NCBI GenBank assembly: GCA_031261805.1
Contig: JAISIX010000059.1
Coordinates: forward strand, 1-59,159
Source: Mediterranea sp.
Lineage (GTDB): Bacteria; Bacteroidota; Bacteroidia; Bacteroidales; Bacteroidaceae
DNA length: 59,159 nucleotides
Direction of reading: 5' to 3'
Shown one piece after another: positions 1-46,671 of the stretch. The position numbers and the translations under genes are program-made. The notes beneath the pieces are model-generated. The model ran no database searches and was not told the DNA's origin. It saw only the letters and a list, made by a program, of their open reading frames with translations. Every line of letters begins with the position of its first letter. Position 1 is the first letter of the stretch.

Positions 1-2643
1 TTCGGCTACATCTTCGTGGACAACATCAAGTCCAGGGAGGAGGCCTGCCAAATCATCGCCCACGAGCTGGGACATGGCCTCTTCACCCTCCGCCACACCT
101 TCGACTCCTTCTACGGGGGAGTGCTCAAGCAGGGCGACACCGACAACCTGATGGACTACTCCGACGGGACCTTCCTCGGCAAATGGCAGTGGGACATCAT
201 CGGCGCGCCGGCGATTTGGACAAGCCCGTTCGCGGCGGACGACAAGAGCGAGATGAACGTAAGCTATCACTTGGCCTTGTCACCTGATGGACGGTTCATG
301 GACCAGTTCTACCAAGACGGCAAGCAAGTAACGGTAAGGATGGTGATAGCCCCCCATTCGTTTGCCGTACGGAAGTTGAGGTACAAGGACGAGGATTATG
401 AATGGGACGCAAGCTCCTCGGATTTCGTCTCCACCTCGTCCGACAAGCACATCGCTTTCAAGGCCAGCAATACCAAGCCGGACAAGGTGAACATCTACAG
501 GGCATCCGGCGACCCCTGCGAGTACAACTACGCCCTCATCCCTTGGCAAGAGGGGAGTGACATAAACGGCATAAGCGCCGGCGGGGACACGAAATGGTTG
601 CGTTACCCCTATTCGGACCGTGACATCGTGTGCGCCATGAACGCCACGTTGGCCAACGACCGCCAGGAATGCGACGTGGAAGACATTGAGCGGGGCTACA
701 AGGAGTTGCGTGACAGCCTGGGCGTGGCCGGCCCCCAAGCCTTGGCCGCCACCGTGAACAGGGCCTGCCTCTCTTCCCTGCGGAAACTCACTTACGGGGA
801 GAAAGAAAGGCTGTTCACGGCCATCGCCGGACAGGAGACCATCAAGGAGGAGTCCGAGCTTGCCTTGCTACGCCTGATGCAATCCCTCGTCTCGTCGGAA
901 TACCAGAGCTTCTACCGGCTGTTGGAAAAGGATGGCAACCGGTTGTTGACGCACCTCGTCTCCGAGATGGACGATGCCTCACTCTTCTTCTGGCGTGACG
1001 GCGAGAACTACACGAACTTCATTGGGGCCTTGGCCATCATGTACCAGACCTCTCCGGAATCCATCGCGGAACGCTGGCCTACGAACGACGGGGACTATCT
1101 GGCACGGATAGTGAACCTCGAGGGCATGGATTGGCAAGAAGACCGTTTCAGCGGGATGTTCAGCTACCGGCACATGGAAGGGGAGTATGACGGCGGAAAG
1201 GTGACGGTCTACGATGTCTTCTCACTCAGCACGCCAAATCCGCGACCGGGCACCGCGAGCACTAAGTCGGAGAAATGGACAGTGATAGCCAAGCTGGATC
1301 CCCTCACCCCGATACTCGTGTCGGTGGACAGGATGCAGCTGCCCTTGGTGGAGACGGCCTTGGGAGAACCCATCACCGGCGGAAAATACTATGTCGTCCC
1401 GGCCATCTTCTTGGAGTACAACCAGGATAAGCTGGAGAACGACCGCATAAAGACGGCGGTGAACGTCTCCCTGGACGTGGCCACCATCGCGGCGAGCGGC
1501 GGAACGTTGCTGGCGGCAAAGGTCGCGTGGGCATCTCGGATATGGGCCTTGGCGGAAGTGGCGGGTGCCGTGGGCGACATCGGGCTGAACCTCACACCCC
1601 CAGCCGATGCCAACAGCGCGTTGGGCAAGGCGATAAACGCTTACAACCTCGGCATGGGCATCATCGGCCTGAAGAACGTGGGGAAGGGCATCGTACACTT
1701 CGCACAGACGTTGCCCGATGCGACCAAACAGCTGTTGGCCAAAAACCAGAGCTTGAGGAATGCCCTTGCCTCTGCCTATCTGAAGTACCGGGTGGAGATG
1801 ACACAGCTGCAGAACTCGGACGAATGGGGACGGCTGTCAGCCGTCGAGCAGAAACAGTTGCTCGACAAGGACGAGGAGATGAGGCTCTTGGCGGGGGTGG
1901 AGAAAGCCGACGAGAAACCCCTCGTGCTACCTCCAACAACTTCTTCGGAAACAACTAAATCAGTCAACCAGATAATTGACGCCATCAAGAACAAATCAGC
2001 GGGACTGGCCAAAAGGAAAGAAGAGATGAAAACGTTCTGCGAATCCCTTGATTCAAATGTGCTCAAGGTCCTGATGGAGAACAACATGGATGACTTCAAG
2101 AACTTGTTGGCAGAAATGGCCCAGACAAAGAACTCGTTTACAGGGTGTTCCTTTATACTCCAGAATATAGTTAACAAAGGAACTGATTTCATCAAAAGCA
2201 TAGAATCTTATAGCGCAAAGATACTTGATGACATGAATTTCATGACAGATATAAAACTGAAGCCAGCTCGGGGACATAGAGAGGGGCAAATGTTAGAGTA
2301 TAAGAGTTGGACCAAAAGTTCTTTCGACAAATATCTTCATGGTGACCAAGCTGTCGAGCAGATGAAAGCCTATATTCAATACGGCGATTTTATGTATATT
2401 GTAGATGGTGAGAAACTGGCAAAGGCTTTCTCGACTACGAAGGAAATAGAAACGTTCGTGAGGAAGAAGTTCCAAAATGTGTTTAAGAAGCATGCGGAGG
2501 AGTTTTATAGTTTGAACCCTGCGTTCTTTGGGAAATTTAAAAATGCAGATAAAACTTCCGTCGAAAGTTTAACCGAATTTGAAGAATTAGTAAAGGATAA
2601 ATCTTTTATAGAACAATTGTCAAATATAGTAAAAGTAGAATAA
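1..2643 (+). CDS. 5'-truncated large protein: zincin/metzincin-like peptidase motif, hydrophobic helical region and variable low-GC C-terminal domain; candidate polymorphic toxin with a restriction-endonuclease-fold tip
   Basis: Frame is open from base 1 (FGYIFVDNIK...). AHELGHGLFTLRH (HExxH plus third His) followed by NLMDY (Met-turn-like). Ala/Gly-rich hydrophobic stretch VATIAASGGTLLAAKVAW...LAEVAGAVGDIGL. Base composition turns AT-rich at about 1930. C-terminal TDIKL...LEYKSW fits a PD-(D/E)xK-like D...ExK pattern. Confidence 0.7.
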   Translation, partial: FGYIFVDNIKSREEACQIIAHELGHGLFTLRHTFDSFYGGVLKQGDTDNLMDYSDGTFLGKWQWDIIGAPAIWTSPFAADDKSEMNVSYHLALSPDGRFMDQFYQDGKQVTVRMVIAPHSFAVRKLRYKDEDYEWDASSSDFVSTSSDKHIAFKASNTKPDKVNIYRASGDPCEYNYALIPWQEGSDINGISAGGDTKWLRYPYSDRDIVCAMNATLANDRQECDVEDIERGYKELRDSLGVAGPQALAATVNRACLSSLRKLTYGEKERLFTAIAGQETIKEESELALLRLMQSLVSSEYQSFYRLLEKDGNRLLTHLVSEMDDASLFFWRDGENYTNFIGALAIMYQTSPESIAERWPTNDGDYLARIVNLEGMDWQEDRFSGMFSYRHMEGEYDGGKVTVYDVFSLSTPNPRPGTASTKSEKWTVIAKLDPLTPILVSVDRMQLPLVETALGEPITGGKYYVVPAIFLEYNQDKLENDRIKTAVNVSLDVATIAASGGTLLAAKVAWASRIWALAEVAGAVGDIGLNLTPPADANSALGKAINAYNLGMGIIGLKNVGKGIVHFAQTLPDATKQLLAKNQSLRNALASAYLKYRVEMTQLQNSDEWGRLSAVEQKQLLDKDEEMRLLAGVEKADEKPLVLPPTTSSETTKSVNQIIDAIKNKSAGLAKRKEEMKTFCESLDSNVLKVLMENNMDDFKNLLAEMAQTKNSFTGCSFILQNIVNKGTDFIKSIESYSAKILDDMNFMTDIKLKPARGHREGQMLEYKSWTKSSFDKYLHGDQAVEQMKAYIQYGDFMYIVDGEKLAKAFSTTKEIETFVRKKFQNVFKKHAEEFYSLNPAFFGKFKNADKTSVESLTEFEELVKDKSFIEQLSNIVKVE

Positions 2644-2644
2644 C

Positions 2645-3655
2645 ATGGTCAATATTATAATAAAGAAAGTGATGACTGACATTGAAAGCTACCAAATCCT
2701 GAGTAATAATAGCCTCATTGTCGTTAATGACAAAAATGAAATTAGTCTAAATAATATGAGTCTTGGGAAAGTGGAATTGGCAAGACATATATATGTATGT
2801 TCCACTGACATATTAATTGCAGAACTTCGCAATAGAACCGCTTATATTATTAGAGACTCAATGTTGCACCCTTTCCTTGGATTGGATTTTTCAGTTTCAA
2901 ATGTCATAAACAAGAAGATGCTTATTCTTTATAAAAGAGATAAACTTGGTCGCAAAACATACTATATATACGACTATGATGAGCATAGATTACTTAGAGA
3001 AATTAGCCGTTATATCAATTACTTATACAATGATTTTACATTTGGATATAATGAGACAGAAATATATGCTTATCGTATATCCACAGGTGATATTCAATGG
3101 CAATATTCCATCCAAGACTACCCTCGCTATATCGATAACTTTGAAGAACGTAATGCAGACATCAAGCAAATCCTTGGAGTCTATAAAGACATCCTTTGGG
3201 TACACGTTGGCGGCTTTCAGTTAATTGGTTTGGACATCCATACCGGCGAACGGAAACATTATGTAGAGGACATCTGGCTGGAAGATAAGAGCACTGATTT
3301 TTTGGACACTAAGTCTGGGATTTTAAGGTCATTATGTTATGACCACTACTATGAGTTCAATCTGAACTCTTTGCAGTTCATCAAGCAGGTGAAGATTGAC
3401 AATGGTTTGACTATTCGAGGAAGTAATAGCTACCCTGACGATAAATGCCTATACTTCTGTGGGCATTATAACAAGTCTACGCTACCCAACGCTTTCGGCA
3501 TCTTCGACACAGAGAAAGCCGAAATCGTGTGGTACGATACCCGAAAGCCGGATGGTGGTTATTTCTATAACCCTCCCCAGGCAAACGACAAACATTTGGC
3601 CATATTGGATGACAAGCATAACTTACTGATATACAATCGTGAAAAAGATGAATAA
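2645..3655 (+). CDS. Low-GC hypothetical protein, beta-propeller-like (PQQ-like repeats); putative immunity protein
   Basis: Starts 1 nt after the upstream stop codon. AT-rich like the toxin tip. No signal peptide. Blade-like motifs IYAYRISTGDIQWQY, LIGLDIHTGE, GIFDTEKAEIVW. Confidence 0.6.
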   Translation: MVNIIIKKVMTDIESYQILSNNSLIVVNDKNEISLNNMSLGKVELARHIYVCSTDILIAELRNRTAYIIRDSMLHPFLGLDFSVSNVINKKMLILYKRDKLGRKTYYIYDYDEHRLLREISRYINYLYNDFTFGYNETEIYAYRISTGDIQWQYSIQDYPRYIDNFEERNADIKQILGVYKDILWVHVGGFQLIGLDIHTGERKHYVEDIWLEDKSTDFLDTKSGILRSLCYDHYYEFNLNSLQFIKQVKIDNGLTIRGSNSYPDDKCLYFCGHYNKSTLPNAFGIFDTEKAEIVWYDTRKPDGGYFYNPPQANDKHLAILDDKHNLLIYNREKDE

Positions 3656-3668
3656 TACTTCAACAACA

Positions 3669-6600
3669 ATGGATATACGAAGAATAGTCTCAGGATTGGT
3701 GCTCTTTATGCTCCTCTCCCCTCTCTTCCTACATGCACAGTCGGCTGCGCCCACAATTCTCCAGAATGCGGCGCAATGTTTTACCACGATAGACCAGAAG
3801 AACAGTTATGCCGAAAGTCTAAATCAAGCGGTAATGAATGAAATGCCAGCAGGCTATCGCAAGACCATCAACAATATGGACGTGACGATAGCAATAAGCA
3901 CGGCCGAATACGAACAGGATTATGCTGTCTTTAGCGCCTTTCTCCGTATCCAGATACCTGGCGAGAATGGAAGGCTACTCTTCTTCGGAGCCGATGGACT
4001 AAAGATGGGCTATGACGGCAGCATTCTCGGCGACGCACGCTTAGCGTTGCTGGCCGATATTGACATCGTCCTCAACCCCAACATCACGCTCCGTCTAAAA
4101 GGAGACTTCAATAAAACGACCGGAGCACAGGCCTCCAACCTGACGTATGCCTCCATAGACTGCTCGGGATTGCGGGAGATAGGCCTGACGGCGGAGGTAG
4201 AGCTGTCGGACAAGCTTTGCAAGCCGGTGGACAAGGACGGCAAGGTGGTAGAAGGCAGTAAGGTCGTCGGCACTTTCCGCACGGTTCTGGAGAACTGGAA
4301 CGACCTTGTGGCGACCATCTCTTTCCCATCCTTTGCCATCAACGGCTTGGACGGGTTTATCTGGAACGTACAGAATGCCGTGGTAGACCTTAGCGACCTG
4401 CGCAACGGCGACGGATTCAACTTCCCCACCGGCTATGGCCCTTATATCCCGCAGGGGAACACGGCATTGTGGCGGGGCGTGTACGTGAAAGACCTCTCCG
4501 TGACCCTGCCCAAGCCTTTCAACGGGGATGGGCGAAGGGTGAGCTTCGCCGCCCACGACCTGCTGATTGACGAGAACGGGGTGACGGGACTCTTCACGGC
4601 CACCAACGTGCTGGCTTTCGACAAAGGGAACGCCTCGGGATGGTCGTTCTCCGTGAATGAGTTCGGGCTGGACATCCTGGCGAACCACCTGAATGGAGCC
4701 TCCTTCGCGGGTGAGATAGGCCTGCCCGTCTCCGACAAGTCGAGGCTGGGCTACCAAGGCTTGATCACCGCCGACAACCAATATATGCTGCAAGTGAATA
4801 CCACGGACACCCTCTCCTTCGACCTGCTACAAGCCAAGGCCGAATTGCTGCCCAACTCCTACGTGAAGCTGGCCGTGGCGGACGGGCAGTTCCGCCCCGA
4901 GGCATTGCTGCACGGACGCATGGGAGTGACGGCGAAAGTCGCCTCCCCAAAGGAGGACGGCAAGGAGATAGCGAAGTTCAAGGGCGTGGAGTTTCGTAGC
5001 CTGCACCTACAGACACAGAATCCATACCTCAGCGTGGAGTACCTTGGATACAAGGGGAGCGTGAACCTGCTGGGCCTGCCCGTCTCCGTGAGCGACATAG
5101 CCCTGACGACAGGCGGGAATACAGCCTCGCTGCACTTCAAGCTCAACCTAGCATTGATGAAGAACGACATGGGAGCCATGACAGCCCTCACCATTGGCGG
5201 ACGGATGGATGAGGGGAGCGGCCGCCAGCACTGGCGCTACGAGCAGACGAAGCTGGACGGCGTGCAGGTGGATGCCACCGTGGCCGGCACGTTCAAGCTC
5301 AAAGGTGAGCTGGAGATGCTGACCAATGAACCCACGTACGGCGATGGCTTCCGGGGCGAACTCAATGCCTCGTTCACCGACCGCAGCCCATTGAAGGGGC
5401 TGGGCATCCGTATGCGTGGGATGTTTGGCTACAAAGGGTTCCGCTACTGGTTTGTGGACGGCATCGCCACGCTCCCGGGCAGCGGGTTGCCGGTAGGCCC
5501 GGGATTCTTCCTCAACGGCTTCGGGGGCGGCATCACCTACCGGATGGCACCCGAGGGCATCGAAAAGGCTACGAGCCTCTCCTCCACCTCCATGAAATAC
5601 CGGCCCGATGAGAACCATTCGCTCGGCATCAAGGCCTCGGTGGCTTTCTGCGTGGCGAACAAGTCGATGGTCAACGGCGAGGCGAGCTTCGAGCTGTCGT
5701 TCAACAAGAAAGGTGGGCTTTCGTACGCCGGGTTCTACGGATTCGCCCGGATAGCCGCCGGAAACAAAAGCGCTGCCGGTTTCGAGAAAGAAGCGGCCGC
5801 GAAATACAGGGAGCAGGCGAAACGCGAGAGCGACTATATAGACAACCAGCAAGAGAAAGCGGAGACCCTCACCCGCTACAAACAATACGAGCCGCAGAAG
5901 GCAGCGGAAATCGCTGCGGGCAAGAGTGACGCCAGCCTCGGCAGCGGTGGATTGGCAGCCTGTGTAGGCATCCAGTACAACTTCGACGAGTCCTCGTTCC
6001 ATGCCAGCTTCGACCTCTACGCCAACCTTATCGGCGGCATCATCCGGGGCGTGGGGAGCAACAACCGCGCCGGATACGCCGTGCTACACATAGACCCCAA
6101 GGACTGGTATGTCTATATGGGTACCCCCACCGACCGGATTGGGCTACGCATGGGCTTCGGCAGCATCCTGAACGTGAAGACAGGCTCCTACATCATGGCC
6201 GGCACGCAGATTCCCGCCGCGGCGGGCGTACCCGAGCAGGTATCCTCCATCCTGGGATATACGCCGACCGACCTCGACTACATGGGTAGCCTCAACCAGA
6301 TAGGCACGGGCAAGGGCTTCGCCTTTGGCTCCAGCCTGAGCATCGACACCGGCGACCTCACCTTCCTTATCCTCTATGCCCGGTTCTCCGCCGGGATGGG
6401 CTTCGACATCATGCTCAAGGACTATGGGGAGGCACAATGCAAAGGACGCGACGGTGAGATAGGCATCAATGGCTGGTACGCCAACGGGCAAGCTTATGCC
6501 TACCTCTGCGGCGAGCTGGGCGTGAAGGTACACCTCTTCTTCATCAAGGCGAAGATACCCATCATCCGTGCCGGCATAGCGGCATTGATGCAGGCCAAGC

Positions 6601-8156
6601 TCCCCAACCCAAGCTCGTTCAAAGCCTACCTGGCCGTGCGGGCCAAGGTGCTGGGCATCATCAGCGTGAACTGCCGTTTCAAGATACTCATCGGTGAGGA
6701 CTGCCAGTTGGTGATCCCTGGTGGCAGCCCACTCGACATGGCGATGATTACCGACTTGGCACCGGAGGACAACGCGGGCGACGTGAGTGTCTTCGCCGCC
6801 CCGCAAGCCACGCTGCAGACGGCAGCCGGAAAGGCGTTTACCGTCAACGACGACCAAGGGGAGAAGACCTATCGGATCAACATCAAGGAGTTCAGCCTGA
6901 ACGATGGCCAGACAGACATCTCCGGCGGCCTGCGTTGGAATGATACGCACGATGCCGTCTCCTTCTACTCCGACGAGGTACTGCCACCCCAAAAAGAGGT
7001 GACGGCCACCGTTCGCGTGAACTTCGAGGAGCTGAAGAACGGGCATTGGAACGTGGTGTACACCGGTGGGCAGGAAGCTATTGAGAGCAAGACGGTACAC
7101 TTCCGCACAGGTGACGCCCCCAAAGACATCCCGCTGCAAAACGTGGAGTACGCCTATCCCGTGATAGGACAGAAATACTATCTGAAAGGTGAAAGCCAAC
7201 AGGGCTATATCCAGCTCAAACGTGGGCAGAGCTACCTCTTCCCCACCGACCTGAAGAACCAGATAGTGTACGAGGGTAAGTCGGGTGGACGACAAGCCAT
7301 CGACTTCCGGTACAATGAGTCGCGGAAGCGGATAGACTACATCGTTCCTGAGATAAAGAATGGCGAGGCTTATACCCTTACGGTAACTTCGTTGAGCGGT
7401 GGGACGGACAACCCCGTGACAGGCGATTCGGTCACCTCCGTGATCAGTAGTGGCGACGACGGCGACATAACCCTCGCGGGCAAACAGGCAGCCGCGGCTA
7501 CCCGTACGGACATCGGGAAGACGCTGCTCACCTACGACTTCACTGCCAGTCGTTACAACACCCTTGCCGAAAAGATACACGCGTTGAACAAAAAGAACCC
7601 CATAGCCACCTCCCTCTCCTCCAGCCTCCTCATGTTTGGCTACAGGATGGAAGGCATGGAGCCTTTCGACTTGGCCGACCTGACCGGCACGGAGCAGACC
7701 GCCCGCCAGCCACTGGTCGATGTACGTGCCACACTCGACGACGACTTCTACAAGAAGCACATCTATCCGCTCGTCTACGAGGGATATCCCATCGGCGGAC
7801 GTTTCCGTGTGACACGCACGGATGTGGACTCCATCGGCGTACCACCCGTCAAGGCACTTCCCTTACGCTCCGACTACCTAAGCGAGATTGAGGCGGGCAA
7901 CTACCGAGGCATCACCACCACCCTCTTCCCCTATCACTACAACCTGCCGGCCGTCTACTCGCAAGACTTCACCGACCTGCAGAGCCAAGTAGTCAATGCC
8001 TTGCTGGGCAAAGGAGGAGCCATGTACGACCGATTCCTGCTGGGTACCTATCCCTTTATCCTGCCGGGTAAGTACACCATACGGATGCAGTACGTGATGC
8101 CGGGTGGCATCAAAGGGACGGAGACCACGTTCGACTACGAGAATGCGATACAATAA
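3669..8156 (+). CDS. Large (~1495 aa) secreted beta-strand-rich hypothetical protein
   Basis: ORF track gives 3639..8156. ATG at 3669 yields a Sec signal (MDIRRIVSGLVLFMLLSPLFLHA|Q). Long run of amphipathic Gly-rich beta segments (e.g. YWFVDG, LNGFGGGITYRM) and an Ig-like C-terminal part. Confidence 0.75.
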   Translation: MDIRRIVSGLVLFMLLSPLFLHAQSAAPTILQNAAQCFTTIDQKNSYAESLNQAVMNEMPAGYRKTINNMDVTIAISTAEYEQDYAVFSAFLRIQIPGENGRLLFFGADGLKMGYDGSILGDARLALLADIDIVLNPNITLRLKGDFNKTTGAQASNLTYASIDCSGLREIGLTAEVELSDKLCKPVDKDGKVVEGSKVVGTFRTVLENWNDLVATISFPSFAINGLDGFIWNVQNAVVDLSDLRNGDGFNFPTGYGPYIPQGNTALWRGVYVKDLSVTLPKPFNGDGRRVSFAAHDLLIDENGVTGLFTATNVLAFDKGNASGWSFSVNEFGLDILANHLNGASFAGEIGLPVSDKSRLGYQGLITADNQYMLQVNTTDTLSFDLLQAKAELLPNSYVKLAVADGQFRPEALLHGRMGVTAKVASPKEDGKEIAKFKGVEFRSLHLQTQNPYLSVEYLGYKGSVNLLGLPVSVSDIALTTGGNTASLHFKLNLALMKNDMGAMTALTIGGRMDEGSGRQHWRYEQTKLDGVQVDATVAGTFKLKGELEMLTNEPTYGDGFRGELNASFTDRSPLKGLGIRMRGMFGYKGFRYWFVDGIATLPGSGLPVGPGFFLNGFGGGITYRMAPEGIEKATSLSSTSMKYRPDENHSLGIKASVAFCVANKSMVNGEASFELSFNKKGGLSYAGFYGFARIAAGNKSAAGFEKEAAAKYREQAKRESDYIDNQQEKAETLTRYKQYEPQKAAEIAAGKSDASLGSGGLAACVGIQYNFDESSFHASFDLYANLIGGIIRGVGSNNRAGYAVLHIDPKDWYVYMGTPTDRIGLRMGFGSILNVKTGSYIMAGTQIPAAAGVPEQVSSILGYTPTDLDYMGSLNQIGTGKGFAFGSSLSIDTGDLTFLILYARFSAGMGFDIMLKDYGEAQCKGRDGEIGINGWYANGQAYAYLCGELGVKVHLFFIKAKIPIIRAGIAALMQAKLPNPSSFKAYLAVRAKVLGIISVNCRFKILIGEDCQLVIPGGSPLDMAMITDLAPEDNAGDVSVFAAPQATLQTAAGKAFTVNDDQGEKTYRINIKEFSLNDGQTDISGGLRWNDTHDAVSFYSDEVLPPQKEVTATVRVNFEELKNGHWNVVYTGGQEAIESKTVHFRTGDAPKDIPLQNVEYAYPVIGQKYYLKGESQQGYIQLKRGQSYLFPTDLKNQIVYEGKSGGRQAIDFRYNESRKRIDYIVPEIKNGEAYTLTVTSLSGGTDNPVTGDSVTSVISSGDDGDITLAGKQAAAATRTDIGKTLLTYDFTASRYNTLAEKIHALNKKNPIATSLSSSLLMFGYRMEGMEPFDLADLTGTEQTARQPLVDVRATLDDDFYKKHIYPLVYEGYPIGGRFRVTRTDVDSIGVPPVKALPLRSDYLSEIEAGNYRGITTTLFPYHYNLPAVYSQDFTDLQSQVVNALLGKGGAMYDRFLLGTYPFILPGKYTIRMQYVMPGGIKGTETTFDYENAIQ

Positions 8157-8196
8157 TAAACAGAGAGAAAAAAACATATAAAAAAGAGAAAAGAAC

Positions 8197-9552
8197 ATGA
8201 GATTAAGGTCATTGATATGGATGGGAGCGAGCGTGATGTTGACGCTCGCCTCCTGCTACCAAGAGTCGCGCCTGCTGGTGCATGCCGACTTTGTGGTGAC
8301 GGTGGAAAACGACAATCACACCGCCCCCGTGCACGTCGCGCTGGAGAACACCAGTACCGGGGCGGACTTCTATGAATGGACGTTCGAGGGCGGCAGTCCC
8401 GCCACCTCTTCCGAGAAGACGCCTAAGGAGGTGGCATATAAGCAGGCGGGTAGTTACAAGGTGATGCTAAAGGCCTGGAACGACCACGAGCAGGATACCA
8501 AGGAGTACACGTTGCGGGTCGATTCGGCCGTCACCGTCTCTTTCGGCACGGAGATTGAAATGAACGACTTCGCCCCGGCCAAGGTACGCATTACCAACCA
8601 AACCCGGGGCGCTTCCACCTTCGTCTGGACGTTTGAGGGTGGCCAGCCGGAGGAGTCTGACGAGCCGCAACCGGGAGAGATTGCCTTTGACAAGCCAGGT
8701 GAGCATCGCATCACAGTGATGGCAAGCAATGGCGGGGAGACTTTTACGCTCTCGAAAAGCATCACTTTACGGCCGGCCCTGCAGCCTGATTTCGACATAG
8801 AGCCTACTTTCGACGACTTCGACTACGAGGTACCATTCACAGCATCGCTGGCCAACAAGACAGTGAGCGGACTGACTTACCGATGGGAGACGACGGGCGG
8901 CACCCTTGATGATGCCACGGCAGAACATCCAAGGTTAAGCATTACCACTCCCGGGACCTACACCGTGACTCTAACGGCCGAGAACGGGAAAGAGAGTAAA
9001 GAGGTACGTAAGGAGGTGACGGTGAAGGCCAACTCCAACCTCTATACGATGCGGGACGTGAAATTTGGCATCAAGTCGGCGGCAGGGAGCATCGGCGCCT
9101 TCTACTCATTGGACAAGCGGATGATAATCCCACAACCATCGAAAGGAGTCTCGGGAGAGATTGGAAAAGAAATCAGTCTCGTCTTCTTCGGCATTAACTT
9201 CTCCTTCGAGAAGTGCTACTTCACTTCGCCCGACCGTGCGACAGACGCTGGCTTCTACGCCATTCCAAACGCCACAAAGACCTACATCGTGAACACGTTG
9301 GAGCAATCGCCGTTGACATTTAGCGCAAGCGACTTCGACGCGATGGTGGACGACACGCCACTGAAGGGCTTGGATATAAAGACGAACGACAACCCGTCGG
9401 GCTGGTTTATCGCCAATCCTGTGCCACGTGTGGTGCTGTTTGAGACATCCGACGGGCGGCGGGGAGCCATCAAAATCAAGGCGTTCGTCTCCGAGCAGTC
9501 ACAATCGTACATACTGACCGACCTGAAATTCCAAAAGAGACAAGGACAATGA
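8197..9552 (+). CDS. PKD-domain lipoprotein (about three PKD repeats)
   Basis: Lipobox LASC at residue 20. PKD signatures YEWTFEGGSP, FVWTFEGGQP, YRWETTGG with G-Y/H-x-V/I-x-L motifs. C-terminal domain ends VLFETSDGRRGAIKIK. Confidence 0.85.
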   Translation: MRLRSLIWMGASVMLTLASCYQESRLLVHADFVVTVENDNHTAPVHVALENTSTGADFYEWTFEGGSPATSSEKTPKEVAYKQAGSYKVMLKAWNDHEQDTKEYTLRVDSAVTVSFGTEIEMNDFAPAKVRITNQTRGASTFVWTFEGGQPEESDEPQPGEIAFDKPGEHRITVMASNGGETFTLSKSITLRPALQPDFDIEPTFDDFDYEVPFTASLANKTVSGLTYRWETTGGTLDDATAEHPRLSITTPGTYTVTLTAENGKESKEVRKEVTVKANSNLYTMRDVKFGIKSAAGSIGAFYSLDKRMIIPQPSKGVSGEIGKEISLVFFGINFSFEKCYFTSPDRATDAGFYAIPNATKTYIVNTLEQSPLTFSASDFDAMVDDTPLKGLDIKTNDNPSGWFIANPVPRVVLFETSDGRRGAIKIKAFVSEQSQSYILTDLKFQKRQGQ

Positions 9553-11222
9553 AGAAACGAATATACCTGTTCACCGCTCTCCTCGCGTGGGGCGTCTCTT
9601 TCGCATATAGCCAACAAGTGGATATCGAAAACCTAAAAAACATCGGGAAGAACAAGCCCTTGACTGTCACGGGCGGACTGTCGGCCGGGAGCATCTTTTA
9701 CGACGGTAATGCACAGTCGGGACGCCAGCCATGGACCTATTACCTCAACGGGACGGTGAACTTCAACCTCTTCGGCATGATTAACCTGCCGTTCAGTCTG
9801 AACCTCACCAACCTGGGCAAGGATTTCTCCTACCCGTCAATGCCCAACCGATTTAGCCTGCACCCCACATACAAATGGGCCACGGCGCACATTGGCGACG
9901 TGGCAATGACGTTCTCGCCCTACACCCTCTCGGGCCACCAGTTTACAGGCGCCGGCGTGGAGCTTACCCCCGGCAAATGGAAAATCAGCGCCATGGGAGG
10001 ACGGTTGCTCAAGGAGGTGGCCTACGATGAAACCGCGCCCAGCATCACCCCTACCTACCGCCGTGTGGGCATGGGGGCCGACGTGCAGTATCTTGGCGAC
10101 CGCTTCTCGGTGGGGATGATTTACTTCGCCGCTAAGGACAAGGAGAACGCGATGATGCAAGAAGCGATGGACTCACTCGCCATCCGGCCCATGGAAAACC
10201 AAGCGTTGAGTTGGAACGTAGGCATCGACCTTGTAAAGAACCTGAGCCTGAAAGCCGAATATGCCCTTAGCCTGCTGAACATAGACACGCGGGCAAGCAA
10301 GCGTGTAACCTACCACTACCACGCCTTCAATGCCCAACTGAGCTACCAGTTGTGGAAGAACACCATCGGTGTGGGCTATGAGCGCATCGACCCCGGCTAC
10401 CGGACACTGGGAGCCTACTACTTCAATAATGATTATGAGAACCTGACGTTGAACTACGCCCGACCGTTCCTCAAGGATGACAAGGGCAGCGTGGCTGCCA
10501 GCTTCGGCGTGCAACGCGACAACCTCGACGGCAAGAAAGAGGAGACCTCACGGCGTTATGTGGGGTCGCTGAACCTCACCTACAACCCCACGGAGAACGT
10601 CCAGCTCTCGGCCAATTACTCCACCTTCCAGAACTACCGTAACTTGAAGTCACAGTTTGACTACATCAATGAGATGTCACCTTACGACAACATGGATACA
10701 CTGCGCTTTACGCAACTCTCACAGAATCTTGACTTCGCAGCAAATTACACCTTCAAGAAGACAAAACAGCAGCAACAAAGGCTTAGCCTGACGGTGAGCT
10801 ACCAAGAGTCTGCCGACCGCCAAGGGGGCATCTCCTTACCGGGCAACGTGTCGCGTTTCCTCAACTCGGCTTTGGGCTACGGGCTGCAACTCATTCCACA
10901 AGCCATTAGCCTCACCTCCTCGCTGAATGCCTCGTATTCCTACGCCTCGGTAGTGGAGTCGTACACCATCGGCCCGATGGTAGGCCTCACTGCCGCCTTC
11001 CTGAAAAAGCAACTGACGACCGACTTCTCTACCGCATACAATGTGAATGTCAACGCCGGCAGTGTGGCGGCCCGTGTGCTCAACCTGAGGCTGAACGCTG
11101 CTTACCGCATCAAAAAGCGGCATAACTTCAACGCGAATGTGGTGTGGCAGAACCGTGATATCAAAACCCGGGGGAAAACAGACGCGGTAACGACAACCGT
11201 GGCATACTCTTACAGCTTCTGA
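9549..11222 (+). CDS. Outer-membrane beta-barrel protein, hypothetical
   Basis: Signal peptide (…GVSFAYS|QQ). Alternating amphipathic strands throughout. C-terminal BAM-type motif AYSYSF. 4-nt ATGA overlap with the PKD gene. Confidence 0.8.
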   Translation: MKKRIYLFTALLAWGVSFAYSQQVDIENLKNIGKNKPLTVTGGLSAGSIFYDGNAQSGRQPWTYYLNGTVNFNLFGMINLPFSLNLTNLGKDFSYPSMPNRFSLHPTYKWATAHIGDVAMTFSPYTLSGHQFTGAGVELTPGKWKISAMGGRLLKEVAYDETAPSITPTYRRVGMGADVQYLGDRFSVGMIYFAAKDKENAMMQEAMDSLAIRPMENQALSWNVGIDLVKNLSLKAEYALSLLNIDTRASKRVTYHYHAFNAQLSYQLWKNTIGVGYERIDPGYRTLGAYYFNNDYENLTLNYARPFLKDDKGSVAASFGVQRDNLDGKKEETSRRYVGSLNLTYNPTENVQLSANYSTFQNYRNLKSQFDYINEMSPYDNMDTLRFTQLSQNLDFAANYTFKKTKQQQQRLSLTVSYQESADRQGGISLPGNVSRFLNSALGYGLQLIPQAISLTSSLNASYSYASVVESYTIGPMVGLTAAFLKKQLTTDFSTAYNVNVNAGSVAARVLNLRLNAAYRIKKRHNFNANVVWQNRDIKTRGKTDAVTTTVAYSYSF

Positions 11223-11233: not shown

Positions 11234-11299
11234 AAAAAAGGCTACTCTCACGAGCAGCCAATCTTGTTAACCTTAAATCTAATACTTATGAAAAAAACA
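11234..11299 (-). ncRNA. Putative small RNA, paralog copy 1 (resembles the multicopy Bacteroides FopS-type sRNA family)
   Basis: Near-identical core to 51274-51338 (cagccaatct(t)tgttaaccttaaatctaatact(t)atgaaaaa on +). Own promoter upstream and a GC hairpin (11240-11259) plus U-tract on the minus strand. Ends approximate. Confidence 0.7.
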
Positions 11300-36645: not shown

Positions 36646-38379
36646 ATGAAAAAAGCTAATTACGATAAGTTTCCATCCACTCCCCTCACCGGAAAGATAA
36701 CGCAAGGCTGGGAGCCAATTCTCACTCTATTGAAGGAGAAGGCAGGTACCAAGCAGGTGTTGGCCATAGACCTCTATACCGGCGTTTATGAAGAAGAGGT
36801 GCAGGAAGCCTTCTCCAAAGCTTATAAAGGAAGGGTTATCGACACACGCGACCTGATGAAGCCTGAGCCAGCCATCCGCCAGCTGACAGAACGCTTCATG
36901 ACGGACGATGTCCTATTTGGTTATGTGACGAACTTGCGGCTATCCGATTACTTCGACCCCGACAAGCTGGCCAAGGCACGCCGAGAGCTTAGCGAAACCA
37001 AAGAGAGCGTCATTGTAATAGGGACCGGCGCGGCACTTGTTGCCCCCCAAGACGACACACTGCTGGTCTATGCCGACATGGCCCGCTGGGAGATACAGCA
37101 ACGCTTCCGCCGCCACGAGGTGAAGGCACTGGGCATCGACAACAGGACCGAAGCCGTCAGCCTGCAATACAAGCGGGGATACTTCAACGACTGGAGAATA
37201 TGCGACCGTCACAAGGAGAGCCTCTTCGGGCGAGTGGACTTCTGGCTCGACACCCACCTGCCCGGCCAACCTAAGCTGATAGACAAGGAGACCTTCTTCC
37301 GTGGCATGGAAGCCACGGCACAGACGCCCTTCCGCGTAGTGCCCTTCTTCGACCCCGCCCCATGGGGTGGCCAGTGGATGAAAGAGGTATGCGACCTCGA
37401 CCCCAAGAACGCCAACTACGGATGGTGCTTCGACTGCGTGCCCGAAGAGAACAGCCTTTACTTCGACGTGAACGGCATACGTTTCGAGCTGCCCTCCATC
37501 GACTTGGTGCTACTCAAGAGCCGGGAGCTGCTGGGCGAACCCGTGGAAGCGCGTTTCGGCAAGGAGTTTCCCATCCGTTTCGACTTCCTCGACACCATGG
37601 GAGGCGGGAACCTCAGCCTGCAGGTGCATCCCACCACACAGTTTATCCGCGAGAACTTCGGAATGCAGTACACGCAGGACGAGAGCTATTATATGGTAGA
37701 CGCGGGCGAAGACGCGAAGGTCTACCTCGGCCTCAAAAGAGGGGTCGACCCACAAGCGATGATAGACGACCTGCGGAAAGCCGAGCGCGGCGAACTGGTG
37801 TTCGACACGGAGAAATACGTCAATAAGATTCCCACACGCAAGCACGACCACTTCCTTATCCCCGGCGGAACGGTTCATTGCTCGGGAGCCAACAGCATGG
37901 TGCTGGAAATCAGCTCCACGCCCAACATCTTCACCTTCAAGCTATGGGACTGGCAACGGATGGGTTTGGACGGCAAGCCGCGCCCCATCAACGTGGAGCG
38001 GGGCAAGAGCGTCATCGACTGGAAACGGGACACCGACTACGTGGAGGCCAACCTGCGCAACCACTTCACCACCATAGCCCAAGGCGACGGTTGGACGGAA
38101 GAGCGTACCGGCTTGCATCCCAACGAATTTATAGAGACCCGACGCCACCGCTTCAACGTGCCGGTGACGCACCACACCAACCAGAGCGTCAACGTGCTCA
38201 ACCTCTTGGAAGGCGAGGAAGCGATTGTAGAAAGCCCTACCCACGCCTTCGCCCCTTTCACGGTGCACTATGCCGAGACATTCATCGTGCCTGCCTGCGT
38301 GAAAGAGTACACCATCCGTCCACACGGTCCATCGGCAGGGAAAGAGTGCGTGACCATCAAGGCATACGTACGGTTCTAA
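36646..38379 (+). CDS. Class I mannose-6-phosphate isomerase-like cupin with N-terminal extension
   Basis: PWGGQWMK, FPIRFDFLD, NLSLQVHP, QDESYY, IPGGTVH, VLEIS. Confidence 0.85.
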   Translation: MKKANYDKFPSTPLTGKITQGWEPILTLLKEKAGTKQVLAIDLYTGVYEEEVQEAFSKAYKGRVIDTRDLMKPEPAIRQLTERFMTDDVLFGYVTNLRLSDYFDPDKLAKARRELSETKESVIVIGTGAALVAPQDDTLLVYADMARWEIQQRFRRHEVKALGIDNRTEAVSLQYKRGYFNDWRICDRHKESLFGRVDFWLDTHLPGQPKLIDKETFFRGMEATAQTPFRVVPFFDPAPWGGQWMKEVCDLDPKNANYGWCFDCVPEENSLYFDVNGIRFELPSIDLVLLKSRELLGEPVEARFGKEFPIRFDFLDTMGGGNLSLQVHPTTQFIRENFGMQYTQDESYYMVDAGEDAKVYLGLKRGVDPQAMIDDLRKAERGELVFDTEKYVNKIPTRKHDHFLIPGGTVHCSGANSMVLEISSTPNIFTFKLWDWQRMGLDGKPRPINVERGKSVIDWKRDTDYVEANLRNHFTTIAQGDGWTEERTGLHPNEFIETRRHRFNVPVTHHTNQSVNVLNLLEGEEAIVESPTHAFAPFTVHYAETFIVPACVKEYTIRPHGPSAGKECVTIKAYVRF

Positions 38380-38425
38380 GAGAAAAACGATATTTTATTA
38401 ATCCTATAATGCACCTATTCAAACC

Positions 38426-39529
38426 ATGTATGAACAAGATGAACGTATCGTGATGACACTGGACGCGGGAGGCACCAACTTCATGTTCTCCGCCATGCAA
38501 GGTTGCCGCGAAATCATCAGCCCCCTCTGCCTGCCGGCCGCGCCCGACGACTTGGAATGCTGCCTCGCCACGCTGGTAGAAGGGTTTCTGGCGGTAGAGA
38601 GGCAACTGCCCAAGCTTCCCGTAGCCATCAGCTTCGCCTTTCCCGGCCCGGCCGACTACGCCCACGGCATCATCGGCGACCTGCCCAACTTTCCCGTCTT
38701 CCGGGGAGGTGTAGCGCTGGGGCCGTACTTAGAGGGGCAGTTTGGCATCCCCACCTTTATCAACAACGATGGCAACCTCTTCGCTTACGGCGAGGCCATC
38801 GAAGGCGCGCTACCCGCGGTGAACAGAGCCTTGCGGGAAGCCGGTTGCAGCCGACAGTACCACAACCTGCTGGGCATCACGCTGGGCACGGGCTTCGGCG
38901 CGGGGGTAGTCGTCGACCGTCACTTGCTGACGGGCGACAACGGTTGCGGCGGCGACGTATGGCTGATGCGCAACAAGAGGTATCCCGAGATGATAGCCGA
39001 AGAGAGCGTCAGCATACGGGCCGTGCGCCGGATGTACGGAGAGCGGAGCCAAACCGACGCCTCCCATCTCTCGCCCAAAGACATTTTCGACATAGCCGAG
39101 GGGACCAAGGCAGGCGACCGCCCGGCCGCTATCCAAGCCTTTGCCGAGCTGGGCGAGATGGCCGGCGACGCCATCATCCGTGCCCTGAACATCGTCGACG
39201 GCCTGGTAGTCATCGGCGGCGGGGTGGCGGGAGCCGCCAAGTACATCCTGCCCGGCATGACGGCAGAGATGCGCCGAACAGTAACCACCTTCGCCGGCGA
39301 CACGTTCCCTTGCCTCCAGATGGAGGTCTTCGACCTCACCGACGAGCAGCAACGGGATGAGTTCCTGACCGAGAAAGAGACCACGGTCAGCATCCCCCAC
39401 TCCGACAAGCAAGCGACCTACCTCCGGCGGAAGAAAACGGGCATCACCCTCTCCTCCCTGGGAGCCAGCAAGGCCATCGCCATCGGGGCGTATGCCTTTG
39501 CCTTAAACGAACTCAATAAACAATCCTAA
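38426..39529 (+). CDS. ROK family sugar kinase
   Basis: LDAGGTN, AFPGP, INNDGN, TLGTGFGAG. Confidence 0.9.
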   Translation: MYEQDERIVMTLDAGGTNFMFSAMQGCREIISPLCLPAAPDDLECCLATLVEGFLAVERQLPKLPVAISFAFPGPADYAHGIIGDLPNFPVFRGGVALGPYLEGQFGIPTFINNDGNLFAYGEAIEGALPAVNRALREAGCSRQYHNLLGITLGTGFGAGVVVDRHLLTGDNGCGGDVWLMRNKRYPEMIAEESVSIRAVRRMYGERSQTDASHLSPKDIFDIAEGTKAGDRPAAIQAFAELGEMAGDAIIRALNIVDGLVVIGGGVAGAAKYILPGMTAEMRRTVTTFAGDTFPCLQMEVFDLTDEQQRDEFLTEKETTVSIPHSDKQATYLRRKKTGITLSSLGASKAIAIGAYAFALNELNKQS

Positions 39530-39542
39530 TAAACAACATCTC

Positions 39543-42500
39543 ATGGAACAATCTAATCTATCGAATGCGCCACGTGCCCTCCGACCCAACGGAAAGGCAA
39601 TCGCTCATCGGCTGCTGAAAGCCGTCCTGCTGATAGCCTGCTTGAGCATCACCAGCCTCGGGCTGCAAGCTCAATCGCCAACCATCACCGTCAAAGGGAA
39701 AGTAACGGCCGACGCGGAGCCGGTCATCGGCGCCACCATCCAAGTGAAGGGAGCCTCAACGGGCACCGTCACGGACATTGACGGTAACTTCTCCATCAAT
39801 GTATCGCCACAGGCTACGTTGACCTTCTCCTACGTAGGCTACACCACACAAGAAGTCCGCGTGAACGGACGGCACGTACTGGACGTGATCCTCCATTCCG
39901 ACGTAGTGGCCCTCAGCGATGTAGTGGTAGTGGGCTACGGCGTACAGAAGAAAATAAACCTGACCGGCGCGGTAGCCTCCGTCAACTCACAAGAGCTGGA
40001 CGGCAAGCCGGTGGCCAACGTGCTGGAGGCCATGCAAGGCACCACCCCGGGGCTGATTATCCAAGAAGGCTCGTCCAACCCCGGAACCCCGCCCTCCATC
40101 AACATCCGTGGCCTCAACACGATGAACAACAACGACCCGCTGGTCATCATCGACGGCATCGAGGGGTCGTTGGGCAACCTCAACCCGGCCGACATTGACC
40201 AGATTTCCATTCTGAAGGACGCCTCTTCCACCGCCATCTACGGCTCACGGGCCTCCAACGGCGTAGTGCTCGTCACCACCAAGAAAGGGAAAGCCGGCAA
40301 GACGGAGGTATCCTACGACTTCATGTACGGCCTGCAACAACCCACCTCGTTGCCCAACATCGCCGACTCCTGGGTCTATGCCGAGCTATACAACGAGGCT
40401 GCCGTCAACTCCGGACGCTCCACCAAGTTCACCGCCGAGCAGATAGCCGGCTTCAAGCAGAACGGGCCGAACGTGAAATGGATAGACGAGCTGTACAAGA
40501 GCGTGGCCCCGCAGAGTTCGCACAACGTCTCCATGACGGGAGGCAACGACCGCCTCTCCTACCTTGCCTCCGTGGGCTACGTGGACCAGAACAGTATGTT
40601 CGAAGGTCCCGACTACGGCTACAAGCGTTACAACGCCCGCCTCAACGTGAGCCACAAGGTGACGGACAACTTCACGCTGACCCTCACCTCGCAGTTCGCC
40701 CGCAACGACATCAAGGAACATGCCTACTGGACCGACTGGATCATTGAGCAGGCCAACCGTATGCCACCCATCTACGACATCAAGAACGCCGACGGCACCT
40801 ACACCTATCCCTCGGGCAGCAACTCCAACAGCCTGCAACGCCTTGAGCAGGGAGGCTACCGCCAGAACGTCAACGACGAGCTGCTGGGCACCCTGAAGGC
40901 CGAGTGGGAACTCTTCAAAGGCTTCAAGCTGGTGGGCAGCGCCGGCGGACGGGTGTGGAACAACGCCCAGCACGAGAACCGCAAAGCCTTCGAGGGGACG
41001 GGCGACAGTGAGAACCACATCGCCGAGACCTTCTACCGCTCGCGCAACGTCACCACCAACCTGATGGTGACCTACAACACCCAGATAGGCAAGCATGCCA
41101 TAGGCGCGCTGATAGGCTACTCCTACGAGGGCTTCCACGAGAAGCAGTTCTCCACCACACGCATCACCGACGACTCCAAGTACGACATCTTCGTGGGGTC
41201 GCTGAGCGGCGACAACGTGAGCAACAGCGGCTCGGCCAGCGACTGGGCCATCTACTCGGGCTTTGCCAGGGCCACTTACAACTACGACGAGAAGTACCTC
41301 CTGGAGTTCAACATCCGCAACGACTACTCCTCCTACTTCGCCAAGGGCAACCGCTCGGGCATCTTCCCCTCCTTCTCCGCCGGCTGGCGCATGTCCGAGG
41401 AGAAGTTCTGGGACAACCTCAAGCCCTACATTCCCTCCTTCAAGCTCAGAGGCTCGTGGGGCTGGGTGGGCAACAACCGCATCGGTGCCTACCAGTACAT
41501 GCAAGCCGTGTCGGTGACCAACGGCATCAGCTTCGGCGACAAGCTCGCCTCCACGGCTATCTTCGGCAACCAGAAGAGCGACGGGAGCTATGCCGCCGCC
41601 AACCCCGACCTGAAGTGGGAGACCACCCGCATGGCCGACATCGGCTTCGACCTCGGCTTGCTCAACAACGACCTCAACGTCAGCTTCGACTACTTCAACA
41701 ACCACACAAAGAACATCCTCGTCAACCTCCCCGTACCCGGACTCTTCGGCAACGGGGCACCCATCCAAAACGCCGGTGTGGTAGGCACCAACGGTTGGGA
41801 GCTGGCCATCAACTACCGCCTGAAGACAGGAGCGGTCACCCACCGCTTCGCCGGCAACCTCTCCGACTCGCGCAACAAGGTGCTCGACAACCACGGCGAG
41901 GAGACCATCAACGGTTCCGACGTGCAGACCATCATCAAGGAGGGCTACCCGCTCAACTCCTACTACGCCTACCGCTGGGACGGATTCTTCAACACCCAAG
42001 CCGAATGTGACAAAGGCCCGCACCTGGACGGCATCACCCCCAAGCCCGGCGACATACGCTACATCGACAAGAACGGCGACGGTGTCATCAAGGAGGACGA
42101 CGACCGCTTCGTGGTGGGCAACGACTTCCCCCGCTACACCTTCGGCTTCACCTACGGCCTCGACTACCACGGGTTCGATTTCTCCATGATGTGGCAGGGC
42201 GTAGGCAAGCGCGACAAGTGGATGCGCGGCGAGTCGGTAGAGGCCTTCCACAACAACAACGAAGGTCCCATACTCGACTTCCACCTCGACCGCTGGACAC
42301 CCACCCACACCGATGCCACCTACCCGAGGCTCACCATGGGGTCCGAATCGGCCAACAACGCCGCCAAGTCCAACTTCTGGATACAGAACGCCGCTTACCT
42401 GCGCCTGAAGAACGTGCAGATAGGCTACACCTTCCCCGAGAAGTGGATGCACCACTTGAGCATTCATCACCTCCGCGTCTTCGTGAGCGGACAGAACCTG

Positions 42501-42614
42501 CTCACCTTCGACAAGATGAAAGGTGGATACGACCCCGAATACACCGGCGACGGCAGCGGACGAGCCTATGCCGTGGCCAAGGTCTACTCCTTCGGATTGA
42601 ATGTTAAATTTTAA
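39543..42614 (+). CDS. susC: SusC/RagA TonB-dependent transporter
   Basis: GTVTDIDGNF, VVVGYGVQKK, ILKDASSTAIYGSRASNGVVLVTTK, NPDLKWET, YLRLKN, terminal GLNVKF. Confidence 0.97.
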   Translation: MEQSNLSNAPRALRPNGKAIAHRLLKAVLLIACLSITSLGLQAQSPTITVKGKVTADAEPVIGATIQVKGASTGTVTDIDGNFSINVSPQATLTFSYVGYTTQEVRVNGRHVLDVILHSDVVALSDVVVVGYGVQKKINLTGAVASVNSQELDGKPVANVLEAMQGTTPGLIIQEGSSNPGTPPSINIRGLNTMNNNDPLVIIDGIEGSLGNLNPADIDQISILKDASSTAIYGSRASNGVVLVTTKKGKAGKTEVSYDFMYGLQQPTSLPNIADSWVYAELYNEAAVNSGRSTKFTAEQIAGFKQNGPNVKWIDELYKSVAPQSSHNVSMTGGNDRLSYLASVGYVDQNSMFEGPDYGYKRYNARLNVSHKVTDNFTLTLTSQFARNDIKEHAYWTDWIIEQANRMPPIYDIKNADGTYTYPSGSNSNSLQRLEQGGYRQNVNDELLGTLKAEWELFKGFKLVGSAGGRVWNNAQHENRKAFEGTGDSENHIAETFYRSRNVTTNLMVTYNTQIGKHAIGALIGYSYEGFHEKQFSTTRITDDSKYDIFVGSLSGDNVSNSGSASDWAIYSGFARATYNYDEKYLLEFNIRNDYSSYFAKGNRSGIFPSFSAGWRMSEEKFWDNLKPYIPSFKLRGSWGWVGNNRIGAYQYMQAVSVTNGISFGDKLASTAIFGNQKSDGSYAAANPDLKWETTRMADIGFDLGLLNNDLNVSFDYFNNHTKNILVNLPVPGLFGNGAPIQNAGVVGTNGWELAINYRLKTGAVTHRFAGNLSDSRNKVLDNHGEETINGSDVQTIIKEGYPLNSYYAYRWDGFFNTQAECDKGPHLDGITPKPGDIRYIDKNGDGVIKEDDDRFVVGNDFPRYTFGFTYGLDYHGFDFSMMWQGVGKRDKWMRGESVEAFHNNNEGPILDFHLDRWTPTHTDATYPRLTMGSESANNAAKSNFWIQNAAYLRLKNVQIGYTFPEKWMHHLSIHHLRVFVSGQNLLTFDKMKGGYDPEYTGDGSGRAYAVAKVYSFGLNVKF

Positions 42615-42625
42615 ACCACACCGCA

Positions 42626-44227: not shown

Positions 44228-44260
44228 TGCCATCCTACAACGATTTAAACAAGAACCATT

Positions 44261-45397
44261 ATGAAAAAGATAATCGGAATATACGCGCTGCTGCTACTGG
44301 CCCTCACCGGCTGCCAGAAAGACTATAAGCTGAACTCGAGCTTCAGCGTGCCCACGCAGCTCAACTCGCCCGCACCCGTGCAGCTGGACGTCACCTCGAC
44401 CAACCTCATCACCCTGTCGTGGACAGGCGGCGGTGCCGACGACGGCGGTATCGTGCTCTACAACGTCCTCTTCGACAAGCAAGGAGGCGACTTCTCCAAC
44501 CCCTTGGCCACCATGAAGAGCGACCAAGGCGGACTGCCCCAGCTCTCGCTCACCCAAGCCGCCCTCAACACATTGGCGCGCAACGCCGGCATACACCCCG
44601 ACGAGACGGGCACCCTGCAATGGACCGTCACCGCCGCCCGTGGCGGAGTGACACGCCCTTGCGACCAAGTAGCCACGCTCACCCTCACCCGGGGCGACGG
44701 CATTGACAACATCCCCACGCAGCTCTACCTCGAAGGCACGGCCGCCGAGACGTCCGGACAAGCCTTCCGGCAGGTGAGCGACGGCGTGTTCCAAATCTAC
44801 ACCCGGCTCACCGACGGCGACATCACCTTCAAGTCGGCCACCACAGGCGATGCCTTCGACTACTACGTAGACCCCGAGGGCAAGCTGACCGAGGGCGAAG
44901 GCAACACCACCGTCACCACCTCGGGCAACAACGTAGCCCGCCTGACCGTGGACTTCAACACCATGCAGATGACCCGTGACGTCATCAACCCGGCCGTGCG
45001 CTGCATCTGGGGAGCCACCTATGCCAACATCGCCGTGCTCAACTACATCGGAGACGGGAAGTTCCAAGGCGACGGCGACATCGTATTCTACGGTCCCGGC
45101 CGACCGGGCACACCCGACTGGTGCGGTTGGGTAGAGGAGCGTTACTACTTCATTGCCAACGTGAACGGCACCGACCTATGCTGGGGACGAGGTGACGACG
45201 TGAGCGCCGAACGTCCCGTAGGCGGCGAGCCGGCCTCCTTCTATGCCCTGTACGAATCCCCTTGGACATCAAAGACGCAGTGGGACCACCTCTGGAAGAT
45301 GAAGGGCACACTCGACGAGACCCACGCCACCATTACCATCGACACCAATGCCGACGGACTGATGATACACACCTTTACCAACGTCACGCCCCTCTAA
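44261..45397 (+). CDS. SusE-like surface glycan-binding lipoprotein
   Basis: Lipobox LTGC, SusE N-terminal pattern (LSW...VLYNVLFD...FSNP), position after susD. Confidence 0.8.
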   Translation: MKKIIGIYALLLLALTGCQKDYKLNSSFSVPTQLNSPAPVQLDVTSTNLITLSWTGGGADDGGIVLYNVLFDKQGGDFSNPLATMKSDQGGLPQLSLTQAALNTLARNAGIHPDETGTLQWTVTAARGGVTRPCDQVATLTLTRGDGIDNIPTQLYLEGTAAETSGQAFRQVSDGVFQIYTRLTDGDITFKSATTGDAFDYYVDPEGKLTEGEGNTTVTTSGNNVARLTVDFNTMQMTRDVINPAVRCIWGATYANIAVLNYIGDGKFQGDGDIVFYGPGRPGTPDWCGWVEERYYFIANVNGTDLCWGRGDDVSAERPVGGEPASFYALYESPWTSKTQWDHLWKMKGTLDETHATITIDTNADGLMIHTFTNVTPL

Positions 45398-45409
45398 ACC
45401 CTAACGACA

Positions 45410-46648: not shown

Positions 46649-46671
46649 AGCGGAAAAGCCAATAGGTTGGT

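Follow-up and report, generated by a model that had tools for sequence, protein, structure and literature searches.

TANFOR toxins are polymorphic toxins in which a carrier with a TANFOR-like N-terminal domain (N-domain) and Fn3 domains ends in a variable C-terminal toxin, with an immunity gene for about 340 aa downstream and a PKD gene as neighbour (Jana, Salomon and Bosis 2020, PMC7073777). The passages of that paper on gene neighbourhoods report an enrichment of PKD, Fn3 and type IX secretion system (T9SS)-tagged genes, and the T9SS is given for >95% of TANFOR genomes, as a correlate outside the definition of the class. Export by the T9SS is hypothesised there, without experiment, and is the only published proposal that we found for the export route (PMC7073777). 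Here we analyse a locus of five genes (A to E) in the first 11,222 positions of the window, i.e. the whole stretch of 59,159 nucleotides from Mediterranea sp. (contig JAISIX010000059.1). This stretch makes up the initial 59 kb of contig C146 in the host genome G000 (3.44 Mb, 268 contigs, 83.5% complete). A preliminary description had seen in these genes a polymorphic toxin with an export platform of its own. We find that the toxin likely adds a new member to a described class. No description of the export module was found within the literature searched. The locus would encode a TANFOR toxin with a BaCT tip plus its immunity protein, and we give even chances to the proposal that the co-encoded barrel, gene E, is a dedicated outer-membrane exporter of TANFOR-domain proteins.

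Genes E and C and the zincin motif of gene A are undescribed in the main text of PMC7073777, in which the words 'barrel' and 'peptidase' do not occur. Also unlike the TANFOR class, the host genome yielded no T9SS markers and no Fn3 or SprB/CTD neighbours (CTD, C-terminal sorting domain). With the T9SS the locus would share two-step export in Bacteroidota, and CTD-tagged SprB-repeat genes lie within related toxin loci; however, T9SS core genes and CTD stay under cut-off in the host, and E (557 aa) is far smaller than SprA. In its plan, a dedicated barrel beside an immunity gene and a large cargo that has an address domain at its N-terminus and a variable tip, the locus is similar to contact-dependent inhibition (CDI; CdiB-CdiA-CdiI) and chaperone-usher systems (PapC, FimD). 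The Omp85/CdiB barrel of two-partner secretion has 16 strands and POTRA domains, whereas E has ~26 predicted strands, a model without POTRA or plug and no family match, and its cargo is without a haemagglutinin or RHS match. The best fold match of E, the 26-strand MtrB (6r2q_B), likewise has an empty lumen that needs a partner, but the likeness is one of fold only, without a sequence family match. In MtrB/PioB porin-cytochrome conduits an adjacent multihaem cytochrome is expected; no cytochrome gene is present among A–E. The barrel module (E, C and the Fn3 partner) was not found in the literature searched by title or abstract, a coverage that leaves subscription journals outside, and in Zhang 2012 (PMC3482391) the passages on the searched terms contain no occurrence of FN3 or PKD. 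The preliminary description had overlooked the membership of the toxin in a published class (TANFOR class, BaCT tip).

The barrel and the TANFOR N-domain

Gene E (9549–11222, + strand; 557 aa with the C-terminal residues AYSYSF) is predicted to form an outer-membrane barrel. Its AlphaFold2 model shows ~26 strands over residues 38–556, with no plug or periplasmic domain (pLDDT 87, pTM 0.75). The best solved match was MtrB (6r2q_B; Z 21.2, rmsd 5.3 Å, 465 aligned residues, 11% identity, TM 0.55), with porins, SprA and ushers scoring below it. The nearest named Atlas family was DUF6029 at 0.93, and a scan of NCBIfam and Pfam gave no PorP-family match; genes A, C and E all had zero Pfam or NCBIfam matches at E<=0.1. 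The barrel family is large, comprising 2,486 of 7,998 candidates. From this model and from the co-occurrence described below, E may be a translocon or an anchor of proteins that carry the TANFOR N-domain. A co-fold of the cognate barrel and TANFOR N-domain of the G793 locus scored 0.27 versus a mark of 0.32, with controls not folded, and was counted neither way. Barrels of family f31 (L030, L032, L033, L034, L036, L038 and L042) are longer, with ~815 aa and a C-terminal extension of ~250 aa; the BaCT neighbours of 810–815 aa that appear in Supplement 3 of PMC7073777 may be f31-type barrels.

Co-occurrence was assessed in 400 genomes drawn once from the order, a sample in which relatedness inflates any test and kin are not independent. 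The barrel was matched in 78 genomes and the TANFOR N-domain part of the carrier profile in 68, after removal of Fn3-only matches by hand and with 12 weak matches outside those listed. The N-domain was present in 60 of the 78 barrel-positive versus 8 of the 322 barrel-negative genomes, and where its match was strong, the barrel was also there in 50/53 genomes. It is the TANFOR N-domain, and not the toxin, that constantly accompanies the barrel.

For the gene order, 66 locus groups were fetched, of which 63 with a well-covered barrel were kept and three dropped; as ~40 of the 63 were chosen with N-domain coordinates already known, the following counts are biased. An N-domain gene and an Fn3 partner were each found in 51 loci, a clear C and an SprB/CTD-type gene each in 27, and in 35/63 the N-domain gene came immediately after the barrel. 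Among the first 23 loci, chosen blind to the N-domain, 18 had an N-domain gene; of the remaining five, three are additional barrel copies whose genomes contain a fuller locus elsewhere. Barrel E, C and the Fn3 partner form a conserved module. In one layout (18 loci) the N-domain heads a zincin-toxin carrier, C is separate or outside the fetched stretch, and an SprB/CTD-type gene is present in 18/18; in another (31 loci) it belongs to a zincin-free giant of 1,600–2,600 aa, which usually adjoins the Fn3 gene. The N-domain is clearly fused to C in 6/63 loci, and about a dozen more show only short C-like matches. A third layout was seen in L108 (G853:C24) and L109 (G940:C15), where a divergent barrel is followed by two tandem TANFOR-like proteins of 1,370–1,410 aa, each with a ~288-aa gene behind it. 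With respect to the preliminary description, the conservation of barrel and giant beta protein, outside the type VI secretion system, CdiB and RHS types, held up. An invariable association of the barrel with a peptidase-toxin did not, the zincin carrier being present in 18/63 loci, and the PKD lipoprotein proved not to be a constant part of the platform, as it was detected in only 7/63 barrel loci.

The zincin-free giants bear on a different explanation, in which barrel, C and Fn3 protein make up a surface adhesin or lattice with the barrel merely as its anchor, and the toxin docks by its TANFOR domain and crosses otherwise (e.g. by vesicles or lysis). Such giants are found in 31/63 barrel loci, and in a Pfam scan of four of them only Ig-like matches were seen; moreover, the best structural match, MtrB, is a sheath (of MtrA) rather than a translocon. 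However, at the identity and TM value given above this match is generic, with ushers and SprA scoring too, and the explanation gives no account of how partners of 1,600–2,500 aa without a detected CTD reach the surface. We regard it as improbable.

Gene C (3669–8156, + strand) encodes 1495 aa from its ATG; a GTG at 3639 would give 1505 aa. It consists of a signal peptide, a long predicted amphipathic beta-meander and then Ig-like parts. In the AlphaFold2 model of its first 1,100 mature residues, of moderate confidence (pLDDT 80, pTM 0.45), the strand content is 59%, and 43 long strands are hydrophobic on one face. Fold searches with C gave generic sheet matches and no specific or close solved fold. 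Concerning a relation to DUF6603/repeating beta-groove proteins, PF20248 was unmatched in the Pfam scan, and an Atlas cluster at 0.92 has DUF6603 on 16% of its members. Homology of the carrier's middle domain to C was considered and found unsupported (hhalign probability 0.6%). Gene D (8197–9552, + strand; 451 aa) is a triple-PKD lipoprotein (PF00801, E 4.5e-22; lipobox-like LASC), which we consider accessory.

The carrier, its tip and gene B

Gene A (1–2643, + strand) is open at the contig start with 880 aa visible. Judged by its sequence, it is probably a TANFOR-class polymorphic toxin, a toxin class already described (Jana 2020, PMC7073777), of which the window would hold the 3' half of the carrier. 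Near the contig start it contains a zincin-like metallopeptidase motif (61–159, + strand), with HELGH at residues 21–25 and NLMDY at residues 49–53, a candidate release peptidase. HExxH was present in 15/15 related carriers examined; in one relative, L114, no zincin match was seen. The pre-tip region (271–1842, + strand; A 91–614) is common to carriers with other tips and shares 34% identity with L114. In Niastella yeongjuensis a relative of C lies between the barrel, which a PKD lipoprotein precedes, and an Fn3-type protein, which is followed by a CTD-tagged protein and then a large carrier; the carrier is 38% identical to A 1–93 over 93 aa, with an HExGH motif in both, and has a weak TIGR02542 TANFOR match. 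Jana et al. include the strain among their TANFOR genomes (PMC7073777).

The host genome holds two TANFOR-like 5' ends, 98% identical to each other, which run off contigs C38 and C21. As the carrier of G793 matches both of these ends (68–69% identity) and, starting at its residue 851, also A 1–82 (58.5%), ~730 middle residues appear to be unassembled in the host; we infer a full carrier of ~1,730 aa, with ~850 N-terminal aa off the contig. TIGR02542 does not match the truncated pieces of C38 and C21, but a profile of related carriers does (E 4e-25); TIGR02542 itself hits only 7/17 of these carriers, the best with 37 bits versus a cut-off of 67. The C38 piece starts with a Sec signal peptide, judged by eye from a basic start, a hydrophobic stretch and a cleavage site before QTYPV. 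Read depth is 23 on the carrier 5' end versus ~9 on the flank, a third upstream branch exists, and a branch departs from the window sequence at base 258, past the zincin motif. We take this to mean that the host has about three nearly identical carriers that differ in their 3' parts; reads from other strains may contribute to the summed depth. The missing 5' part of A was not recovered when metagenome contigs were scanned for exact patterns. A lipoprotein-like open reading frame (ORF) of 472 aa with a weak Fib_succ_major match (L110; G000:C38, 387–1805) immediately precedes one of the TANFOR 5' ends, and two small adjoining ORFs on G000:C21 (5250–5940) resemble a HigB/HigA-type toxin-antitoxin pair.

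The tip of gene A (1957–2640, + strand) has low GC and is assigned, by homology to WP_067145672.1, to the BaCT family of PD-(D/E)xK nucleases (E766, K768). A word-based homologue search returned the tip alone, and a profile search was used instead. The profile, built from the tip of A and four relatives, matched 419 proteins at E<=0.001, of which ten were looked up; two of the ten had accessions, and one, P0265, corresponds to WP_067145672.1, a protein that Supplement 3 of PMC7073777 gives as a BaCT. The pairwise comparison with it gave 25% identity (E 2e-8). A profile seeded on WP_067145672.1 without A scored A at 118.8 bits versus 14.9 for the best of 200 shuffles; its candidate pool stems from a search that included A, a circularity of which the pairwise value is free. 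The ExK motif lies 114 residues before the C-terminus of A versus 117 in the tested BaCT protein. The tip thus likely belongs to the BaCT DNase family and likely cuts DNA.

The tip had been described beforehand as variable, with which the data agree: 16 carrier tips fall into 14 clusters, and L114 shares A 91–614 yet ends in an unrelated tip. GC is 55–59% over A 1–640, C, D and E and 37–38% over the A tip and B; GC at third codon positions (GC3) drops within A from 0.81 (residues 1–640) to 0.45 (641–880) and is 0.41 in B (genome median 0.73, 5th percentile 0.48). The carrier of L114 (1961–6002) has an N-domain and Fn3 and no zincin, and its tip is a separate 168-aa frame just past a stop, 37% identical to the carrier tip of G851.

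Gene B (2645–3655, + strand; 336 aa) starts 1 nt downstream of A and is likely a BaCTic-type immunity protein. It is propeller-like with a weak PQQ_2 match and no evident signal peptide. Relatives of gene B sit behind BaCT-like tips in G793, G662 (twice) and G319, with 23–39% identity where three of the other BaCT-like tips are concerned and 25% in the case of a fourth; the comparison set consisted of genes behind BaCT-like tips, with the tested BaCTic WP_035620349.1 outside it. Gene B agrees with a BaCTic in its position <50 bp downstream of a BaCT and in its similarity to other such proteins. Among 18 rows of published BaCT neighbours the lengths are 302–390 aa, and one is annotated PQQ_DH-like (PMC7073777). 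Taken alone, the assignment of A and B as toxin and immunity protein, which had been anticipated from the adjacency of an immunity-like gene, is very probable. A contig of sequencing run X1 (depth 17.8, five differences) spans the junction of A and B (window 2566–3072) and suggests that the sample contains the immunity gene in a further copy. On G793:C65 (L090, L010), orphan carrier fragments and repeated small genes follow the main toxin; in this array a BaCT-like tip is accompanied by a gene resembling B (36% and 39%).

Export of the TANFOR proteins

Signal peptides on C, E and the carriers and the lipobox of D suggest that all of these proteins enter the periplasm by Sec. Gene E would then provide a wide, unplugged pore, as its predicted fold implies, and the ~250-aa TANFOR N-domain, given co-occurrence and adjacency, may be the address that engages it. 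C may act as scaffold or conduit. In zincin-free loci the N-domain can be fused to C, whereas in toxin loci the two are split and Fn3 stalk, zincin and tip stand behind the N-domain. The zincin may cut the tip free. By homology to the tested BaCT/BaCTic pair, the DNA of a neighbouring cell would be the target of the tip, against which B would protect the producer; the GC shift and the diversity of tips are consistent with an exchange of tips and immunity genes as low-GC cassettes.

The T9SS appears to be missing from the host. SprA, GldK, GldM, GldN, PorP and the type A and B CTD models were all under cut-off in its 83.5% complete genome, with control genomes positive each time; below threshold, a GldK-like (78 bits) and a PorP-like (20 bits) match were seen. 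The sorting domain (TIGR04183 or TIGR04131) was absent at cut-off from A–E and from the host genome as a whole. SprA was over cut-off in 26/120 genomes of the genus, but in none of the 18 closest members by DnaA (85–90% identity; 15 of them at least 90% complete), where the two surveys are taken to share one genus draw on account of equal n and handle order. As SprA is missing in these 18 nearest relatives, the absence of the T9SS in the host is likely real, and since this machine, earlier proposed for TANFOR toxins, was not found, the barrel becomes the likely exporter. In a wider version of the proposal, which we put somewhat short of even chances, a 26-strand barrel family constitutes a Bacteroidota secretion system that exports TANFOR-addressed giants, be they zincin-free surface proteins or toxins, without a T9SS, and G000 is a natural T9SS-null with several carriers and one barrel.

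Alternatively, the toxin might exit by the T9SS via a CTD-tagged SprB-repeat partner, with the barrel serving as surface anchor or shuttle and the present locus being an orphan nearing loss. PorV and PorP/SprF are models for such a cognate anchor or shuttle; E, as said, has no PorP-family match. The SprB/CTD partner of all 18 other zincin-toxin loci fits this route, as does its absence, together with that of the Fn3 partner, from the host assembly; on the other hand, an SprB-type partner occurs in only 27/63 barrel loci and is lacking in most zincin-free three-gene loci within the fetched stretches, and CTD is not reported on the barrel, C, Fn3 or carrier proteins of Niastella. SprA was found in 122/122 module-positive genomes tested, but it is also present in 84/85 of an unselected draw from the order; because of this baseline the correlation weighs little, and we dropped it as evidence. 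The neighbour enrichment table in PMC7073777 speaks for the T9SS as well. Loss in progress would agree with the barrel relic in the T9SS-less G151 and is difficult to reconcile with the undecayed genes and the about three near-identical carrier copies of the host: all ORFs are full length, conserved columns are kept at 0.98 in E (median 0.98) and 0.964 in C (median 0.978), GC3 is host-like (0.72–0.76), and the tip cassette is low in GC. On balance, we think the T9SS route rather unlikely.

Several observations weigh against export by the barrel. A barrel fold by itself shows no function, and the pairing has exceptions, with the N-domain found without a detected barrel in 8 genomes and the barrel without the N-domain in 18. 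In none of the assemblies examined is gene A physically joined to a TANFOR 5' end. The Fn3 partner, present in 51/63 barrel loci, and the SprB/CTD partner of 18/18 other zincin-toxin loci were not found in the host assembly; both could sit in the missing 16.5% of the genome, e.g. behind unassembled carrier copies. The host-like GC could derive from a GC-rich donor. In the mostly T9SS-less genus the barrel was detected in 2/250 genomes, the second of which, G151, is also without T9SS markers and retains just the last ~47 barrel codons. Besides G000, no T9SS-less genome in which the module is intact was found. In G151 these lone codons (L112; G151:C143, 10116–10256) are 70–79% identical to E and lie between unrelated genes; the remnant resembles a scar left where the module was deleted.

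For the TANFOR field, the analysis names unannotated genes that track the TANFOR domain, i.e. barrel, C and Fn3 protein. The T9SS correlation of the module is at the background level of the order, and an intact locus exists in a T9SS-less clade. If the barrel does export, roughly one in five of the sampled Bacteroidales genomes (78/400) would possess this secretion route.

Contig context

Genes A–E are co-oriented, with 1 nt between A and B, 13 nt between B and C, 40 nt between C and D and a 4-nt overlap of D and E; these tightly spaced ORFs, with the gaps and motifs first described for them, were all re-found. The locus is incomplete on the left as had been noticed, the window being the start of contig C146, from which gene A runs off. 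Downstream of the locus lie housekeeping-type genes. A chimeric contig was considered, and is countered by agreeing depths (8.5 versus 10.4) and by both carrier 5' ends on two other host contigs; among the Logan contigs of run X1 none spans the junction near 11273–11293. A termite-gut sequencing run with 94% of the sampled words may be the source of the host genome; among the runs listed as containing these words, none was of RNA. Further downstream, window 36646–50438 contains a long series of co-oriented + strand ORFs of 367–1023 aa with 58–64% GC.

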